From a virus: a stretch of DNA of 28,359 nt. The notes beneath the pieces are model-generated. The model was not told the origin of the DNA. It ran no database searches and was given only the letters and a program-made list of their open reading frames with translations. This document shows positions 12,577-24,103 of the stretch, piece after piece. Every line of letters starts with the position of its first letter. The first letter of the stretch is position 1. The translations under genes were made by a program, and so were the position numbers. The stretch is taken from UHGV virus genome UHGV-0141068, one strand, 5' to 3'.

Positions 12577-13329
12577 TTATCTCGTCACCTTTCTCAATTG
12601 CGTTTCAGCATATGCTTCTTCCTGCCAGCACTTTGTTACTAGTTTATCAATTACGTCTGCATATCCTTTGTACCACTGATAATCAGTCAGGTCTGGAACC
12701 AGCTTCTGGACATGACGTCGTGCCAGTGTAGTTGGTAAACGGCTAAACCGGTTTCCATTGCAACGCCCACAAATCTTATAAACAGGCGTGCCATGAAGCC
12801 GGGTCCTTTTTTCATCCAGGACAATACCTTTACCCTTACACCCTCTGCACGCTGTGCTGACTTCTCCCTTACCATGACAATGCTGACATAGTTCCTTCAC
12901 CCACTCTTCCTTGATAACAGATTCCCCGCTTCTGGAGTGTTTCACCACCTCGCGCAATACATTATGAAATCCAGTACCAGCACAATGCTCACAGCGAGCC
13001 TTACTTGCCGCAGACCTGGAATAATCAGCAAAGGCAAAATTCACAAGGTAAGGAATGATCTGTAGCCGGGTTTCTTCACTCAATTTATTCAATGTCGGGT
13101 TATCCAGTGCCATCGCGTAATTGAGCAGACCTTCAATCGCAAACTGAGGATCCTGAACACCAACTTTTGCCAGGAATAAGGCAAACCCAAGCGGTGCTTT
13201 CGACTGCACCATCCCCTGCGCAGCCATCACATCCGTAATCGTTAAACCACCAGAGCCTGTCGCCGGTGCGTCATCGCTCAGTTTTGGAGATTTCGGGGAG
13301 TAATATTTCGGTAAGGCTTCAAGGTTCAT
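12577..13329 (-). CDS. late antiterminator Q (Qin QuuQ-like type)
   Basis: 250 aa with four CxxCxGxG zinc-finger-like repeats; followed by promoter and terminator as expected for Q. Confidence 0.7.
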   Translation of the reverse strand: MNLEALPKYYSPKSPKLSDDAPATGSGGLTITDVMAAQGMVQSKAPLGFALFLAKVGVQDPQFAIEGLLNYAMALDNPTLNKLSEETRLQIIPYLVNFAFADYSRSAASKARCEHCAGTGFHNVLREVVKHSRSGESVIKEEWVKELCQHCHGKGEVSTACRGCKGKGIVLDEKRTRLHGTPVYKICGRCNGNRFSRLPTTLARRHVQKLVPDLTDYQWYKGYADVIDKLVTKCWQEEAYAETQLRKVTR

Positions 13330-15156: not shown

Positions 15157-15546
15157 TCAGGCGGCTGCACCCGCCGTTTTCTCGTACTTACTGATAGTGA
15201 TCTCGACCTTCCCTTCCGGGATAACCGGTCCCCACTCCACCAGCATTCTTTTCACCTGACTGTCGTCTTCCCACACACCCGCGTGGGTCAGGGCGTCAAA
15301 CAGCGCCTTGTTATAGTTGTCCAGATCGCGGATCCGGTTATCCGGAGGAAACAACACGATCTCCACTGAAGCAGGTGCCGACGTTGGTTTTGGCAGACGA
15401 CGTAACTGCTCAACTATTGCTGCACACGCCGCGCTCTGGAATTTGCGCCCCGCCGCGCTTATCAGGCTCTTACCTGCAAACGCCCCTTTGTTGGGGTGTC
15501 GCCAGTACGTGTTCACGCTGGGCGGGAAAGGCAGAATCAGCTTCAT
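15157..15546 (-). CDS. rusA: Holliday junction resolvase RusA
   Basis: 129 aa, MKLILPFPPSVNTYWR N-terminus and acidic catalytic region characteristic of RusA. Confidence 0.8.
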   Translation of the reverse strand: MKLILPFPPSVNTYWRHPNKGAFAGKSLISAAGRKFQSAACAAIVEQLRRLPKPTSAPASVEIVLFPPDNRIRDLDNYNKALFDALTHAGVWEDDSQVKRMLVEWGPVIPEGKVEITISKYEKTAGAAA

Positions 15547-15869
15547 ACTTTCAGACCCCTCTCATGTAACCAGTGGGCTGCACGCAGCCTGGCGTTTTCC
15601 TCACCGGCAAGCAGTGAGCGGATAATCCCGACCGCCTCGCTGTCGTCGTCCTTCACCGCGGTATGAAGCGTTATCCCCCGGGCCACACCACGCTTTATCG
15701 TGATGACGCCTTTTTTCTCCAGTGCGCGAAGATGCTCCACCGCTGCATTCACTGAACGATATCCCAGCATGGTTGCCACCTCCTGATTGGTTGGCGGAAA
15801 GCCACGCTCTTTCTGGTAAGAAATCAGCATATCCAGCACCTGCTGCTGGCATTGAGTTAACGTCGTCAT
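15543..15869 (-). CDS. LexA DNA-binding-domain protein lacking the S24 peptidase domain
   Basis: 108 aa; LTQCQQQVLDMLISY...PPTNQEVATMLGYRSVNAAVEHLRALEKKGVI mirrors the LexA N-terminal winged helix; no Ser/Lys protease domain follows. Confidence 0.65.
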   Translation of the reverse strand: MTTLTQCQQQVLDMLISYQKERGFPPTNQEVATMLGYRSVNAAVEHLRALEKKGVITIKRGVARGITLHTAVKDDDSEAVGIIRSLLAGEENARLRAAHWLHERGLKV

Positions 15870-17951: not shown

Positions 17952-18299
17952 GACCGACCTCTATTTCCCTGAATTTACGACGAAACTGTTCGAGCGGGCT
18001 GAAGCACTCATGCTCATAGTCTTCGCGGAGGTAGATAACCCGTTGTGTTTCCGGCTCCCAACGAATGACTCTGACGGGTACTCCGTAGTGATCTTTGAAC
18101 CAGCGGTTAACTTGTCGCAAAGGACTGTCTCCTTCTGCCGGTTGAAATCACCCACAGCCCACTCTGCAAAGCTGTGGGTTACAATTTCCCTGTCACCTGG
18201 TACATTCACTGCATAGCAATATTCCACCTTCGCTTTTCCACCCGGTACAGGAAGCGCAATCAGTTGCGAGCGACGGTAGTGTGTTGTTAAACTGTTCAT
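17941..18299 (-). pseudogene. hypothetical gene with apparent -1 frame disruption (or two overlapping small genes)
   Basis: Protein-like N-terminus in one frame (18299 down to about 18130), protein-like C-terminus ([37 protein letters not shown]...) in the -1 frame ending at 17941; frames switch near 18118-18150. Confidence 0.35.
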
Positions 18300-18865
18300 G
18301 CGTTAGTTTCTCCACAACCAGAAGCAATCGACGCCACGACGCCCGGAGCTGCACACTCGCGGGCGTCATTACTTTCTGAAATGCAAAAAATTTTGTAGAC
18401 AAGTGCTGCATGCTCCTGCAGCTTCGAAATTGAGAGATACAGCTCGTCGTTAATTGCTGTCTTCTCATGCGGTTCCACTACACCGTCTTCGATTGCTGAA
18501 CGAATCTGTTTTGAATAACTGCCGATCTGTTCAATGACTTCCAGCAGACGCTGGTTAATATCGGCGTTGTCCACATCCTCGACGTCAGGAAGAGACACAA
18601 AGACGCCATTTGCAGACTGCGCCACAGCATCAGCAATGAAGTGAGTGCCACCAGCACGCTGTAAAACCATTGCCCATCCCAGCGGGAAAATCTGATCGCC
18701 ATCTGCACGAAGGCGGTTGAATAAAGCGTTTTCTGTTACATCGAGCCAGTCAGCCGCTTCAGCGTAACCACCCGGCAACGCCGCGATAGTTTTTCTGACA
18801 GCTTTCACGTACCACTCAGGCTGTTTTTCTATTTTCCAGTGATGCTTACCCACGATTAGCCTCAT
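18296..18865 (-). CDS. CII-like regulatory protein (CP76 type)
   Basis: 189 aa; [34 protein letters not shown] region resembles CII-type HTH; sits directly after cro-like gene. Confidence 0.45.
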
Positions 18866-18896
18866 CGTTCTGTGGTTAAAAATTGAAAGTGTTCTG

Positions 18897-19097
18897 CTAA
18901 TCTTTCGGATAGATATCCGGTCTTAAGTCAGATTTCGTAATTGCACCTGACGTGCATTGCTCAAGTTTTTTAGCCAGCACAAAACTGGCTTTTTTATAGC
19001 CATTGAAAACCAGCCGTAAGTAGCCAGGTGTTGAGCCAACTTTTCCGGCCAACTCGCCCTGCTGTTCTTTGGTTAAAGAGTCCCAATACGCTTTCAT
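18897..19097 (-). CDS. Cro/DicC-like repressor
   Basis: 67 aa from internal ATG 19097 with GGAGG RBS; the longer ORF-track version (to 19400) would overlap cI and the operators; architecture resembles DicC. Confidence 0.65.
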   Translation of the reverse strand: MKAYWDSLTKEQQGELAGKVGSTPGYLRLVFNGYKKASFVLAKKLEQCTSGAITKSDLRPDIYPKD

Positions 19098-19187
19098 ACA
19101 ATATGTACCTCCGATGTACATATTACATGATTGAAATGAACCTTCAAGATACTTGTACCTTAACGGTACAAGGGTTTTAATTTCGTT
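19098..19187. promoter_or_regulatory. OR-type operator/promoter region between cro-like and cI genes
   Basis: Two inverted repeats with GTAC cores: ATATGTAC-N7-GTACATAT (19101-19123) and CTTGTACC-N5-GGTACAAG (19152-19172); minus-strand PR candidate -35 TTGAAG (19147..19142), -10 TAATAT (19125..19120). Confidence 0.65.
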
Positions 19188-19862
19188 ATGAAAACAATCC
19201 ATGACATCCGGCGGTCTAACGCCAGAAAACTGAGAGATGGTGTTGGCGGGAATTCTTCCTTTGCCACTATGATTGATCGCGAGCCAACCCAGACCAGCAG
19301 GTTTATGGGAGATGGTGCTACTAAAAATATCGGTGACAGCATGGCACGACACATCGAAAAATGTTTCGACCTGCCTGTCGGATGGCTCGATCAAGAACAC
19401 CAGACAACGAACATCACAAAAAAACCTGATGTTTCAATCACTAATAAACAAATCACATTAGTCCCTGTCATATCATGGGTACAGGCCGGAGCATGGAAAG
19501 AAGTTGGATATTCTGAGGTTGATTTGAGCACAGCAGAAACGTATCCCTGCCCTGTCCCCTGTGGGGAAATGACTTATATCTTGCGGGTGATAGGTGATTC
19601 AATGATTGATGAGTACCGCCCGGGAGACATGATTTTTGTCGATCCTGAAGTACCTGCCTGCCACGGTGACGACGTTATTGCATTGATGCACGATACAGGT
19701 GAAACCACCTTCAAAAGGTTGATAGAAGATGGGACACAGCGTTATCTCAAAGCGTTAAACCCAAACTGGCCTGAGCCTTACATTAAGATCAACGGTAATT
19801 GCTCTATAATTGGTACAGTGATTTTCTCAGGAAAACCAAGAAGATACAAAATCAAAGCCTAA
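19188..19862 (+). CDS. CI-type prophage repressor with LexA/S24-like autocleavage domain
   Basis: 224 aa; C-terminal half (ISWVQAGAW, GDSM, FKRL, LNPNWP) is the S24 peptidase fold shared with lambda CI; no SD upstream, consistent with leaderless translation. Confidence 0.85.
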   Translation: MKTIHDIRRSNARKLRDGVGGNSSFATMIDREPTQTSRFMGDGATKNIGDSMARHIEKCFDLPVGWLDQEHQTTNITKKPDVSITNKQITLVPVISWVQAGAWKEVGYSEVDLSTAETYPCPVPCGEMTYILRVIGDSMIDEYRPGDMIFVDPEVPACHGDDVIALMHDTGETTFKRLIEDGTQRYLKALNPNWPEPYIKINGNCSIIGTVIFSGKPRRYKIKA

Positions 19863-19874
19863 TCAATGTTTATG

Positions 19875-19897
19875 AACCTGCTTCGGCAGGTTTTTTT
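19875..19897 (+). terminator. rho-independent terminator after cI
   Basis: AACCTGC-TTCG-GCAGGTT hairpin followed by T7. Confidence 0.75.
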
Positions 19898-19901
19898 ATA
19901 C

Positions 19902-19934
19902 TTGACAATGTACCTTTGAGATACATAATGTACC
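19902..19934 (+). promoter_or_regulatory. PL-like early-left promoter with operator half-sites
   Basis: TTGACA (19902-19907), 16-bp spacer, CATAAT (19924-19929); ATGTACC repeated at 19908-19914 and 19928-19934, same core as OR sites. Confidence 0.6.
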
Positions 19935-20034
19935 CAAGAGAAACAACAAACAGGCAGGACGTCCACGAAGTAGCCGCCTGGGGCATATGAAGTCCAAGAT
20001 GATTCGTTAGCAACAAAACGCCCATAGGACGCTT

Positions 20035-20053
20035 CGCTCTTTAACAATTTGAA
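20035..20053 (+). promoter_or_regulatory. boxA-like antitermination element (nutL-like)
   Basis: CGCTCTTTAACAATTTGAA, near-identical to the rrn boxA core GCTCTTTAACAATTT as recalled, about 110 nt downstream of PL. Confidence 0.55.
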
Positions 20054-20351
20054 TATTTTCAGCGTCAATGATCTGTTTAGCTCCCTACAAGTAAATGTAG
20101 CGTAGCACCATGATAAATCCTGCTAGTGTTTAGTTAAAAATCGCGCGAGAGCAAGAACGACGTGAGGGCAGGCAATATTGATAGTGTTATTGCTATTAGT
20201 TTATCAAAAATATTTAGACGACCCAGATGAATATTTTTAATACATACTCCCCCTAATTTAACAGGAGTAAATGTTGATGAATAACGAGACATCTATACTC
20301 AACAATTGTATGATATGAACAATTATATAACATAATGTAGGAAAAATAAAA

Positions 20352-20948
20352 ATGGATTGGCATGACCTTATATCAAAGGTAATTATCGGACTTGTTACAG
20401 GCTCAATCGCAGCTTACTTAACTGCGCGATATGCACTCGGCCGTTATTATAAAGAAAAATGGTGGGACAAAAGAATAGATTTGTATACGCAATTAGTTGA
20501 CTGTGTTTATCTTCTAAAAAACACAGCTGACTATTGGTATAAACATGAGTTACATCACGCTTCACAATTCCCAACCTACTTTAGTTACAAATCAAAAGAA
20601 GAAAATGAAATCCTTAGCAAATCTTTCTCTAATGAGCTTGAAAAACTCAGTAGAATAGGTGAGCTATCTTCATTATTCTTAACAGAAGAGTGTGGGGATA
20701 AAATCCGTTCATTCATTGAAAATGAAGAAAATCTATTTATACAATGGGAGTTTGATAGTATAGAGTTGATAGATGCCCACAAGTCAAGACTTGATAAATT
20801 AAAAGTATTACTAGACGATATTATCTCTGAAGCAAAGAGAGAGCTTAAGGTCAATAAAAAACATAACAGCCTAAAGAATATAAAGTGGTCCATAACTATG
20901 CCAGACCAAAAAAATGATGAGCCAATTAATTATTACGACAATCATTAA
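20352..20948 (+). CDS. membrane-anchored hypothetical protein (moron in early-left region)
   Basis: 198 aa, single N-terminal hydrophobic helix (VIIGLVTGSIAAYLTARYALG) then charged helical domain; markedly AT-rich; own terminator. Confidence 0.6.
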   Translation: MDWHDLISKVIIGLVTGSIAAYLTARYALGRYYKEKWWDKRIDLYTQLVDCVYLLKNTADYWYKHELHHASQFPTYFSYKSKEENEILSKSFSNELEKLSRIGELSSLFLTEECGDKIRSFIENEENLFIQWEFDSIELIDAHKSRLDKLKVLLDDIISEAKRELKVNKKHNSLKNIKWSITMPDQKNDEPINYYDNH

Positions 20949-20958
20949 AACACTTTAG

Positions 20959-20980
20959 AACCCGCTGGGCGGGTTTTATT
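20959..20980 (+). terminator. rho-independent terminator
   Basis: AACCCGC-TGG-GCGGGTT followed by TTTTATT, 11 nt after the stop codon. Confidence 0.7.
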
Positions 20981-21135
20981 CAAATATACTTTGCACATCA
21001 CAAATAAAACTATAACGTCCTTCTTCTTTTCCTAATATCTTATATCTACTTATTTATAAGCGGCTTACAGATCTTCAACAGATAAACCTAATGAAGGCGA
21101 CAATGTTCTGATGAATAGCCACCTTTTTACTCAAC

Positions 21136-21258
21136 TGAAAGCGCGTTCTGTCCCTTGTCATTAAGTGCCAGTTCGTTAAGTCCAAAACCTCCGGAACGCG
21201 CTTTCAATTGAGTGGGGAAAATAACTGGCGATGGCAGCCGCCCGTTGCACTAAGTGCC
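21136..21258. promoter_or_regulatory. structured intergenic element of unknown function
   Basis: 12-13 bp inverted repeat GAAAGCGCGTTC / GAACGCGCTTTC (21137-21148, 21194-21205) enclosing TTAAGTGCC-type direct repeats (21159-21169, 21176-21183, 21248-21258). Confidence 0.4.
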
Positions 21259-21370
21259 TCTGGATGGGGCATTTACTGAAACGAAACCAAAACTTTTAAT
21301 CGCCTTATGGCGAGGGATTCGTGCAACCAAAAATCGTGCGGTGCAGCGCACCAATTAAGGAGAACTAACG

Positions 21371-21907
21371 ATGAGTTTTATCCAGACTCTTACCGGTAAG
21401 AAGTTCAATTATATCAACTCCACCATTGACGATATTTATATCGAGGATATCGCCGGTGCGCTTTCAAATATCTGCCGCTTCGCGGGACACTTGCCGGATT
21501 TTTACAGCGTGGCGCAGCATTCCGTTCTGTGCAGTCAACTTGTGGCGCCAGAGTTCGCCTTTGAAGCGTTAATGCATGATGCAACAGAAGCGTATTGTCA
21601 GGACATCCCCGCGCAACTGAAACGCCTTCTTCCTGACTATAAACGGATGGAAGAAAAAATAGACGCCGTAATCCGTGAGAAATACGGGTTACCCCCGGTT
21701 ATGAGCACGCCCGTGAAATATGCCGATCTCATCATGCTGGCAACCGAACGCCGCGATCTCGGGCTTGATGATGGCTCTTTCTGGCCTCTACTGGAAGGTA
21801 TCCCAGCAACAGAGATGTTCAAAGTTATTCCACTGTCGCCAGGCCATGCCTACGGGATGTTTATGGAACGTTTTAACGAGTTATCGGAGTTACGCAAATG
21901 CGCATGA
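21371..21907 (+). CDS. HD-domain phosphohydrolase (YfbR/YfdR-like)
   Basis: 178 aa with H..H (VAQHSV) and HD (MHDATEAY) metal-binding motifs; strong RBS AAGGAGA. Confidence 0.65.
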   Translation: MSFIQTLTGKKFNYINSTIDDIYIEDIAGALSNICRFAGHLPDFYSVAQHSVLCSQLVAPEFAFEALMHDATEAYCQDIPAQLKRLLPDYKRMEEKIDAVIREKYGLPPVMSTPVKYADLIMLATERRDLGLDDGSFWPLLEGIPATEMFKVIPLSPGHAYGMFMERFNELSELRKCA

Positions 21908-22260
21908 ATGTTTTCGAAATGGAAGGGTTTCTTCGCGGGAAATGTGTACCGCGAGATCTGAAAGTGAATGAAACGGATGCTGAATACCTGGTGCGTAAAT
22001 TCGATGCGCTTGAAGCTAAATGTGCGGCACTGGAAAACAAAGTAATACCAGTGTCAACTGAACTGCCACCAGCAAATGAAAGTGTTTTGTTATTCGATGC
22101 TAACGGAGAAGGCTGGCTAATTGGCTGGCGTTCTCTCTGGTACACCTGGGGACAAAAAGAAACCGGAGACTGGCAGTGGACATTTCAGGTCGGGGACCTT
22201 GAAAACGTCAATATCACTCACTGGGCAGTAATGCCAAAAGCACCGGAGGCTGGAGCATAA
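21898..22260 (+). CDS. DUF551-like phage protein
   Basis: 120 aa, Trp-rich C-terminus with THWAVMP motif; overlaps HD gene end. Confidence 0.5.
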   Translation: MRMNVFEMEGFLRGKCVPRDLKVNETDAEYLVRKFDALEAKCAALENKVIPVSTELPPANESVLLFDANGEGWLIGWRSLWYTWGQKETGDWQWTFQVGDLENVNITHWAVMPKAPEAGA

Positions 22261-22565
22261 TGACCACTTTTACCGACAAAGAACTGATTAAAGAAATCAA
22301 AGAGCGTATCAGCAGCCTTGACGTGCGAGACGATATTGAGCGCCGTGCTTATGAAATCGCACTCCTATCTCTGGAAGTAGAGCCAGATGAACGCGAATCC
22401 TATGAATTATTTATGGAAAAACGTTTCGGTGGCTTAGTAGATAGTCGGAGAGCAAAAAACGGCGATAACGAATACATGGCATGGGATATGACTCTCGGTT
22501 GGATCGTCTGGCAACAACGAGCTGGCATTCATTTTTCAACAATATCACAGCAAGAGGTGAAATAA
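22260..22565 (+). CDS. hypothetical protein
   Basis: 101-aa ORF, ATGA overlap with upstream gene, TAATG overlap with xis. Confidence 0.5.
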   Translation: MTTFTDKELIKEIKERISSLDVRDDIERRAYEIALLSLEVEPDERESYELFMEKRFGGLVDSRRAKNGDNEYMAWDMTLGWIVWQQRAGIHFSTISQQEVK

Positions 22566-22915
22566 TGGAACCATACAGCCTCACGCTAGATGAGGCCTGT
22601 CATTTTCTCAAGATATCCAGACCGACTGCCATTAACTGGATACGCACAGGGCGTCTGCAGGCAACACGCAAAGATCCCACTAAGAATAAATCTCCTTACC
22701 TCACAACACGACAAGCCTGCATTGCGGCGCTTCAGTCTCCGCTGCATACTGTCCAGGTGAGCGCGGGTGATGGCATAACAGAGGAAAGAAAATGTCACTC
22801 TTCCGCAGAGGTGAAATATGGTACGCCAGTTTCACATTGCCGAACGGTAAAAGATTTAAACAGTCTCTTGGAACAAAGGACAAAAGGCAGGCGACAGAAC
22901 TCCATGACAAGCTAA
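22565..22915 (+). CDS. xis: excisionase (P22 Xis-like, AlpA-type HTH)
   Basis: 116 aa from ATG 22565; [36 protein letters not shown]; 3' end overlaps integrase start. Confidence 0.8.
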
Positions 22916-23969: not shown

Positions 23970-24021
23970 TGGTGCCGATAATAGGAGTCGAACCTACGAC
24001 CTTCGCATTACGAATGCGAAG
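23970..24021 (-). other. attachment-site core: 3' fragment of a tRNA-Thr(CGU) gene (not a complete tRNA)
   Basis: Reverse complement reads anticodon stem-loop (TCGCA-TTCGTAA-TGCGA, anticodon CGT), T-arm GGTTCGACTCC and acceptor 3' strand ending CCA; no D-arm or 5' acceptor strand upstream. Confidence 0.75.
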
Positions 24022-24103
24022 TTTTTATATTTTAACTGCTTGAACAACCATCAGAAATCACAAATTTATCATTTTAAATCATAATATTAAAACAAAAAAC
24101 CTG

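Follow-up and report, generated by a model that had tools for sequence, protein, structure and literature searches.

The early-left (PL) transcript of the lambdoid prophage carried by UHGV virus genome UHGV-0141068 opens with a conserved structured RNA, here called Module A, that lies between the PL promoter and a boxA of the kind found in ribosomal RNA (rrn) operons. The window, meaning the whole stretch of DNA analysed, is 28,359 nucleotides (nt) long, and a first-pass annotation of its positions 19902-20053 had singled out a PL-like promoter followed by an rrn-type boxA; Module A had been missed, and it makes the interval of greater interest than supposed, although the window's own copy of boxA became less so. 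The anatomy is well supported: the interval forms the start of the PL transcript in a lambdoid prophage of the SfV/e14/ST64B type that lacks N. As to function, we tentatively favor a composite reading, in which elongation would be controlled at the PL leader independently of N, by host factors together with the leader RNA; we regard this as quite possible, if short of probable. The structured leader and its attached boxA appear to be new. The absence of N in this phage group is not: SfII, SfV, and SfIV have already been reported to lack N (PMC3851460), as has LLS, whose early-left operon is ST64B-like and for which a put-like mechanism has been guessed, early antitermination in the LLS-type group being regarded as unexplained (PMC12315714).

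A covarying RNA at the head of the PL transcript

Module A, whose coordinates are collected with those of all other features in Table 1, begins at about +8 from the inferred PL start. To describe its structure we aligned 53 distinct sequences and analyzed them with RNAalifold and pair counts. The cells of the two helices, P1 and P3, were paired in 94.2% of cases, compared with 64.7% in shuffled alignments, and double-sided changes occupied 174 cells compared with 59 in the shuffles; for both measures, none of 500 shuffles equaled the observed value. When the 3' partner was slid by 1-3 columns, at most 44% of cells paired. A compensatory change was found in 10 of the 11 Module A pairs. For P1, the 5' strands AACGAA, AGCGAA, GUCAUC, and CCACC pair with UUCGUU, UUCGCU, GAUGAC, and GGUGG, respectively; P3 occurs as CCUGG/CCAGG, CCGGU/ACCGG, CCCGA/UCGGG, CCGAC/GUCGG, and CUACC/GGUAG, with a loop of the form GGCRUAYGAAnn. 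Module A is a real structured RNA, its two helices strongly supported by covariation. BLAST, which involved no search pattern, yielded four homologues; in Pectobacterium ZF40, Yersinia YeP1, and Salmonella ST64B the core was unchanged, and in Eeyore one base differed. The search pattern therefore does not account for the invariance of the core.

Module A had no match in Rfam, either in the whole window at the gathering score, where a partial tRNA was the sole match, or in 19890-20360 at E-values up to 10, where all matches were at chance level. No description of it was found in the searched literature, the coverage of which was incomplete, so that a prior description is possible. In the defective prophage e14 of E. 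coli K-12 (locus L005, 3044-3116), Module A kept both P1 and P3, the latter with a compensatory U-A to C-G change, and had an extra C and a different P3 loop (UACGUACGAAGA). Its 74.8 bits were the lowest score among the true members compared at that point, which might be expected of a defective prophage. We rejected the idea that Module A is a small RNA that pairs with phage mRNAs: no complementary word of at least 10 nt was present in the window, and 9-mers were below chance. A second Module A as a counterpart of putR was likewise rejected, the covariance model R1 finding exactly one copy per locus, the window included.

Module A is common to SfV, SfII, SfIV, K-12 e14, CFT073, ST64B, ZF40, YeP1, and phages of Klebsiella and Citrobacter, and it was present in more than 120 IMG/VR contigs. 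The leader was matched in about 1530 of 5426 complete E. coli genomes (about 28%), the boundaries of the matches falling inside Module A or just past boxA. Among species-representative genomes, R1 scored at least 70 bits in 26, belonging to Escherichia, Enterobacter, Citrobacter, Leclercia, Kosakonia, Phytobacter, Scandinavium, Pantoea, Serratia, Yersinia, Xenorhabdus, and Photorhabdus, all of which we take to be Enterobacterales; the remaining 17-mer matches, in GC-rich genomes, reached at most 36 bits and were chance. R1 scans of the HK022, HK639, phi80, and PA2 loci found no Module A.

The position of Module A was constant: in every annotated phage examined, ZF40, YeP1, ST64B, and Eeyore included, it followed the stop codon of a cI-type repressor gene by 100-120 nt and headed the early-left operon. 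Of 103 distinct upstream contexts, 49 had a promoter that matched at least 9 of 12 positions and ended 6-28 nt before P1. Module A recombines independently of the immunity/operator region: in CFT073 and O103, which differ in immunity region, identity starts at P1. The cI-type repressor was the sole protein family that co-occurred with Module A (122 of 128 loci), all else being mosaic, and a conserved partner protein was rejected on this ground. On the antisense strand, terminator-like hairpins were found within 3 kb past Module A in 86% of 78 contexts drawn from IMG/VR and phage records (mean 1.5). This excess fits the frequent reverse-oriented morons of the early-left operon, which transcription from PL crosses in antisense.

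The boxA and the phi80-type domain that follows it

The 15-of-15 match to the rrn boxA, proposed in the first-pass annotation, survived comparison with the actual rrnB leader of E. coli K-12: GCTCTTTAACAATTT is identical to it at all 15 positions (locus L009, 645-659, ...cacTGCTCTTTAACAATTTatcag...). By our own arithmetic, a match of this length would arise by chance in 2 x 28 kb with a probability of about 5e-5, and this is the single zero-mismatch copy in the window. The segment GCTCTTTAACA (20036-20046) fits the functional boxA consensus GYTCTTTAANA (PMC5725501). The element is on the + strand in a predicted 5' leader position, downstream of an 11/12 promoter on the same strand; the spacing, put at about 110 nt in the annotation, measured about 100 nt from the inferred start. 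Across the phage family, the last three bases of the boxA (TTT) vary normally (AATTTG, AATATG, AATCTG, and AACATG). Just the 12-nt core is typical of the family, and the complete 15-nt identity to rrn is partly luck.

A short hairpin precedes boxA. Its predicted stability was -1.8 kcal/mol in the window versus -7.2 kcal/mol for the longer CFT073 form AGCGCC-UAUA-GG(A)CGCU, and its sequence varies too little across relatives for covariation. In the 22 IMG/VR loci that have both Module A and boxA, the linker, the small hairpin, and boxA make up a short conserved unit with boxA at its 3' edge. Across at least five downstream contexts (the window, CFT073, PhiR29, L057, and L016 types), boxA is kept exactly where the conserved leader ends on its 3' side: it is followed by the domain described below in the window, by reverse-strand morons in CFT073/E10 and in PhiR29/O103, and elsewhere by two different open reading frames (ORFs). 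The leaders of SfV and e14 have no boxA. That boxA can function outside rrn and lambda is known, for example, from the suhB leader, where the double mutation C4T/T6C abolished SuhB association (PMC5725501).

BLAST against phage genomes split the leader into two independent mosaic modules. The second, Module B, was 70.7% identical to phi80 (blastn, E 4e-8) in a match that spans the annotated nutL boxA and "nutL core"; boxA is its head, and the window-phi80 alignment runs from 20036 to about 20175. Relatives of Module B were found in phi80, HK225, Klebsiella KO-TP1, and some sixty Stx2a phages of the PA2/TL-2011c type. A scan of IMG/VR with the most conserved 18-mer of Module B returned 120 loci, about 115 with boxA and the domain and a handful due to chance, and in most of the approximately 115 the module is nearly invariant. 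RNAalifold on 15 relatives gave a folded domain of about 140 nt and 44 pairs, in which the closing helices, both long-range, are AGCGUCA/UUGGCGCU and CCUGUU/ACUGG. The fold is backed by a few compensatory changes (CACCGG/UCGGUG, CACCAG/UUGGUG, and CAUCGG/UCGAUG; CACG/CGUG versus CACA/UGUG).

The window copy of Module B is a diverged member of the phi80 "nutL" leader family. It was 65-72% identical to its relatives, which are about 89% or more identical to one another (120/135 in the most divergent pair measured), and it kept 34 of the 44 consensus pairs, compared with 11-22 when the partners were slid. It stops at about 20197, where an AT-rich insert starts. At the site of the phi80 "nutL core", its boxB-like hairpin has 5 bp and the loop AGUAAA in a shifted register; the relatives have loops UAAA, AAAA, or AGAAA on a CACG/CGUG stem. 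Since the first ORF past Module B differs by locus, with none for 545 nt in PA2, and since phi80 "N" sits in a PHROG of unknown function, an N gene does not dependably accompany Module B, even among its own relatives.

Several observations on the relatives of Module B stand beside these results. The commonest boxA of the family is TGCTTTTTAACAA (e.g., phi80, locus L002, 2500-2512), with T at position 4; the consensus C is present at this position in the PA2, L178, and window types, so that the quality of boxA varies in an otherwise nearly invariant RNA. In the Stx phage PA2 (locus L012), which lacks N, the 545-nt stretch past Module B contains Rfam matches to isrK (1867-1942, 58.7 bits) and C4 antisense RNA (1967-2054, 77.1 bits), followed by a 215-amino acid (aa) ORF; the early-left leader of these Stx phages thus strings together at least three RNA elements, in an RNA-then-gene layout that presumably resembles the P1 immI region. 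Among the phi80, PA2, HK639, HK022, and CFT073 loci searched with Rfam, isrK and C4 were found in PA2 alone. HK639 (locus L254, 6313-6400) and phi80 (L002, 2440-2500) share the first approximately 60 nt of the PL transcript (ATCGAAACGAAACATCGA.AGCTGAG.GAAGTTAGCCAGCGGCG), past which HK639 has its annotated putL-like RNA and phi80 has boxA and Module B. The putL-like RNA and the boxA-Module B unit are alternative cassettes in one slot, and because a putL-like RNA occupies it in HK639, we read the slot as a place for an early elongation-control element.

Possible function of the leader and rival explanations

The absence of an N-like gene between PL and the gene at 20352, noted in the first-pass annotation, was upheld and extended to the whole window. 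The + strand from PL to 20352 has no ORF of at least 23 aa. The window was searched by tblastn with lambda N, the arginine-rich motifs of P22, phage 21, and Nun, phi80 "N", and HK225 gp41, several of these queries being sequences entered by hand, and the best E-value was 0.42. Pfam and PHROGs assigned none of the early genes to N, nor did the window contain a credible arginine-rich ORF. The annotation had also allowed for a very small factor, a suggestion that we dropped: the only small ORF, the 7-codon MKSKMIR (19987-20010), falls within a hairpin loop, and many relatives have ACG in place of its AUG. As to nutR, the window has no second exact boxA, boxA 9-mer matches were at chance (23 observed versus 21.5 expected), and the 31-nt gap between cro and the ymfL-like gene leaves no room for it.

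With no N and a genuine boxA, control that is independent of N and driven by host Nus factors or by RNA is a reasonable reading, as had been proposed; the boxA is not the isolated element it had seemed to be, however, but the 5' end of a phi80-type domain. The composite mechanism that we favor draws on established knowledge of boxA/Nus complexes and put RNAs. Once the repressor is inactivated, PL would transcribe Module A and then boxA, and the nascent boxA would load NusB-NusE(S10) with NusA, NusG, and SuhB, as at rrn operons, at the suhB leader, and at CRISPR arrays, the leaders of which also carry boxA. The Nus complex would shield the polymerase from Rho over the untranslated leader of about 400 nt, the foreign moron, and the non-coding stretch at 20982-21370 (in relatives, over genes transcribed in antisense), and the protected polymerase would reach yfdR, xis, and int. 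Module A would act in cis by binding RNA polymerase or a host factor, as a functional analogue of HK022 put and not a homologue; we read it as a cis-acting RNA because of its invariant core, its covarying helices, and the repressor as its sole conserved neighbor gene. That Module A is a new family of protein-independent cis-acting elongation-control RNAs, analogous to put in function but unrelated to it in sequence and fold, we consider doubtful; it would replace N in the very large SfV/e14/ST64B/ZF40 group of lambdoid phages of Enterobacterales and, where a host-type boxA accompanies it in some lineages, would make up an early antitermination system built wholly on RNA and host factors.

A number of findings weigh against the composite reading. 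The minimum-energy fold of the window's Module A (-13.9 kcal/mol, z = -0.15) formed neither P1 nor P3; single-sequence folding of the leader was uninformative in general (z = -1.3 and 0.0). The window copy also has two private changes, U for C at 19962 in the core and A for G at 19997, which makes a C.A mismatch in P3. As both RNA modules of the window are weakened, Module A by these changes and its fold, the pre-boxA hairpin by its drop from -7.2 to -1.8 kcal/mol, and Module B by decay, leader activity may be reduced in this prophage. In a simulation of random decay, the probability of keeping at least 34 pairs was 0.13: window Module B could not be distinguished from neutral decay, and selection on its structure is not supported. 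A boxA was found about 25-30 nt after P1 in just 22 of 127 IMG/VR Module A loci and is accessory to Module A. Its presence had no association with the length of untranslated RNA downstream (Mann-Whitney p = 0.26), and we rejected the notion that it compensates for long untranslated leaders. The phi80-type boxA, GCTTTTTAACA, has T at position 4, one of the positions changed in the C4T/T6C mutant. The suhB boxA is said to mediate negative autoregulation, that is, repression, so that any effect at the phage leader could go in either direction. Finally, sense-strand intrinsic terminators within 3 kb past Module A occurred in 31% of 78 distinct contexts (mean 0.35); the excess looked for as a hallmark of antitermination was not found, and with such terminators uncommon, a need for processive antitermination is not obvious.

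Under the main rival, which we rate as possible though rather unlikely, boxA and Module B would be the decaying remnant of a phi80-type leader, the downstream part of which has been replaced by the AT-rich moron, with boxA kept by chance or as a shared recombination site, in a PL operon short enough to need no processive antitermination. The divergence of window Module B from a family that is otherwise so uniform, its partly broken covarying helices, its retention of pairs at the level of random decay, and the end of homology at the AT-rich insert all speak for a relic, as do the mosaic breakpoints directly after boxA in several lineages, the scarcity of sense-strand terminators downstream, and the lack of any boxA in SfV and e14. 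Yet boxA is perfect although its flanks carry indels and substitutions, it was kept in at least five independent downstream contexts, and some of the window's changes in Module B are double-sided compensations, from C-G to U-A (alignment columns 114/133) and to A-U (86/94); a relic, moreover, leaves Module A unexplained.

Control could also be negative or conditional. Module A would then be an aptamer, an attenuator, or a stable 5' RNA, and boxA would damp expression of the moron, xis, and int by acting as at suhB, promoting Rho termination or blocking translation. An unpaired invariant core with covarying helices and a closing P1 is conservation typical of an aptamer, the suhB boxA reportedly mediates repression, and terminators to be overcome are scarce. 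We nonetheless consider this explanation improbable: past P1 there is no conserved expression platform, whether a terminator or a helix that sequesters a Shine-Dalgarno sequence, and what lies downstream differs by lineage; no riboswitch or ribozyme in Rfam matched at E-values up to 10; and no phage target is complementary to the core. Less probable still is a classical nut site whose unrecognized N analogue, divergent or small and encoded in this or another prophage, binds the 20085-20100 hairpin or Module A: N proteins are short and so poorly conserved that homology searches have low power, phi80 Module B is annotated nutL with a gene called N downstream, and HK225 gp41 has a basic N-terminal stretch, but the leader has no sense ORF of the size given above, the window has no N-like match or credible arginine-rich ORF, cI alone co-occurs with Module A, the first ORFs past Module B vary or, in PA2, are wanting for 545 nt, the phi80 "N" PHROG has no known function, the boxB-like loop is variable (UAAA, AAAA, AGAAA, or AGUAAA), and there is no nutR.

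To our knowledge, the question of how N-less lambdoid phages pass their early operons has a demonstrated answer for HK022 and a few relatives alone, and the Module A leader is a concrete, testable object for it. With the window leader, the few boxA elements that function, or may function, outside rrn and lambda N also gain a phage example. If Module A does modify RNA polymerase, a put-type solution would have arisen a second time and independently, and in many pathogens Module A would also have control over excision, moron expression, and serotype-conversion genes.

Prophage context and comparison with known systems

The window belongs to the SfV/e14/CPS-53 type of lambdoid prophage. A 1.1-kb query (19900-21000) was 100% identical to E. 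coli ECONIH4, and the full arrangement of the window was present in just 16 of 5426 E. coli genomes. PL matches sigma-70 promoters at 11 of 12 positions, the top score within 18800-22900, and begins 9 nt past the repressor-gene terminator; an identical PL sequence is present in SfV, e14, and PhiR29. The half-site ATGTACC occurs at 19908 and 19928 and again at 19103, between cI and cro, and 19-bp operators of the form WTGTACC-N5-GGTACAW were found at 19908-19926 (OL) and at 19103-19121 and 19152-19170 (OR). The strong PL-like promoter with operator half-sites described in the first-pass annotation was thus confirmed by both its TTGACA-16-CATAAT match and the recurrence of the half-sites in OR.

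Table 1. Positions of the PL leader elements and of neighboring genes and signals in the window.
Feature	Position	Strand	Details
Module A, conserved structured leader RNA, 72 nt	19943-20014	+	Covariance model R1: 80.1 bits, E 4e-23
Module A P1	19945-19950 with 20003-20008	+	
Module A P3	19977-19981 with 19994-19998	+	
Module A invariant core	19951-19978	+	CAGGCAGGACGCCCACGAAGUAGCYGCC; called the 26-nt core
Module A conserved junction	19999-20002	+	AUGA
Short hairpin before boxA	20019-20031	+	CGCC-CAUA-GG(A)CG; 3 nt 5' of boxA
boxA	20035-20050	+	CGCTCTTTAACAATTT; 15-mer GCTCTTTAACAATTT at 20036-20050
Module B, diverged phi80/HK225/PA2-type leader domain	20061-20197	+	blastn to phi80
boxB-like hairpin	20085-20100	+	CUACA-AGUAAA-UGUAG; -3.3 kcal/mol; site of phi80 "nutL core" (CACG-UAAA-CGUG)
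PL	19902-19929	+	TTGACA (19902-19907), 16-nt spacer, CATAAT (19924-19929); inferred start about 19936
OL operators	19908-19946		19908-19926 = ATGTACCTTTGAGATACAT; 19928-19946 with weaker second half
cI-type LexA/S24 repressor gene, 224 aa	19188-19862	+	ORF; co-directional with PL as in lambda
Repressor-gene intrinsic terminator	19874-19893	+	8-bp stem, then T run; annotated terminator in SfV
cro	18897-19097	-	31-nt gap to next gene (ymfL-like, 18296-18865)
Q-type late antiterminator	12577-13329	-	Pfam PF03589, E 3.8e-54; phrog_127
198-aa ORF (moron), function not known	20352-20948	+	phrog_17948; inside AT-rich insert
Moron intrinsic terminator	20960-20981	+	ACCCGC-UGG-GCGGGU, then UUUAUUC

The cI-type repressor is nearly identical in position and annotation to SfV cI and e14 YmfK. 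On the plus strand, cI is followed by the PL leader, the 198-aa ORF, yfdR (an HD phosphatase), two PHROG families of unknown function, xis, a 387-aa integrase gene, and a partial tRNA; this gene order makes the plus strand the "leftward" direction of lambda, and the promoter at 19902 is therefore rightly named PL. The early genes of the minus strand are cro, a ymfL/CII-like gene, a ymfM-like ORF, an O-like replication gene, PerC-like, Dam, RusA, KilA-N, DUF968, and Q, and Q is the sole antitermination protein of the prophage recognizable by Pfam and PHROGs. The AT-rich insert with the moron (about 20200-21100, GC 28-36%) occupies the site where relatives of Module B hold other genes. The 198-aa ORF had no match in Pfam or PADLOC, and a defense role for it was rejected. 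Its terminator is the single convincing sense-strand terminator from the leader to xis/int.

Between that terminator and yfdR, the stretch of about 390 nt at 20982-21370 has no ORF longer than 36 aa; its minus strand has two hairpins that resemble terminators, at 21353-21339 and at 21242-21227. The stretch may be a small RNA or what is left of a gene in reverse orientation. A 108-aa protein encoded at 15543-15869 on the minus strand, in the part of the nin-like region that separates Dam from RusA, consists of a LexA DNA-binding domain alone (PF01726, E 2.9e-19) and could be a second repressor-like or an anti-repressor-like regulator. Lastly, Rfam called a tRNA at 23973-24045 on the minus strand (36.3 bits), 18 nt past the integrase stop codon. 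It is tRNA-like in its 3' two-thirds only (anticodon arm, T arm, and acceptor 3' strand), ARAGORN called no gene there, and it is probably a partial tRNA copy at the prophage attachment site.

Of the known systems, the rrn leaders, which are ordered boxB-boxA-boxC and served by NusB, NusE, NusA, NusG, SuhB, and S4, share with this leader the 15-nt boxA identity to rrnB, the position about 100 nt into an untranslated leader, the lack of need for a phage protein, and the order of hairpin then boxA, which is that of rrn leaders and not of lambda nut sites. Unlike rrn, it heads a phage early operon under repressor control, its hairpin is weak in the window copy, and a large phage-specific fold follows boxA. 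Likeness to lambda N/nut, where nutL consists of boxA, a spacer, and boxB and N is encoded downstream, lies in the position just past PL, the small hairpin 50 nt after boxA, and the homologous phi80 sequence annotated nutL. Yet an N gene and a nutR are lacking, the hairpin loop does not look like a conserved GNRA-like pentaloop, and the downstream genes vary among relatives. Given the lack of N and of nutR and the apparent lack of a conserved boxB loop, the leader does not appear to be a lambda-type nut site, despite its true boxA.

The put RNAs of HK022 and HK639 resemble Module A in their length of about 70 nt, their start a few nt past the PL start, their occurrence in N-less lambdoid phages, and the lack of a partner protein, and HK639 resembles it also in having a single copy. 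The construction is different: Module A has the closing P1, one proven hairpin, and a 26-nt invariant core, whereas put consists of two long irregular stems. HK022 put suppresses terminators by acting in cis on RNA polymerase through the beta' zinc-binding domain. In blastn-short comparisons with HK022 bases 24000-32000, Module A matched 8-9-nt chance words alone; it was unlike the HK639 putL-like RNA (L254, 6188-6313), and R1 had no match in the HK022 and HK639 loci. The description "HK022 put-like", offered in the first-pass annotation, is apt as an analogy, there being a structured RNA between PL and boxA; as a claim of homology to put it was rejected, for want of similarity by sequence or model.

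With the suhB leader, the PL leader shares a consensus boxA placed in a 5' leader before untranslated or poorly translated RNA, which suggests Nus control of Rho. The outcome at suhB is reportedly repression, however, and here boxA is found in a minority of Module A phages. Closest in sequence is the phi80 "nutL" (JX871397), with its counterparts in HK225, KO-TP1, and PA2/TL-2011c: all have boxA, the CAGCGTCAATGAYCTGTT strand, the boxB-like hairpin, and the CGCGCGAGAGCRAGAACGRCGTGAG block, but the window copy ends at about 20197 and is followed by the moron, whereas in phi80 the rest of a leader of roughly 350 nt in all follows.

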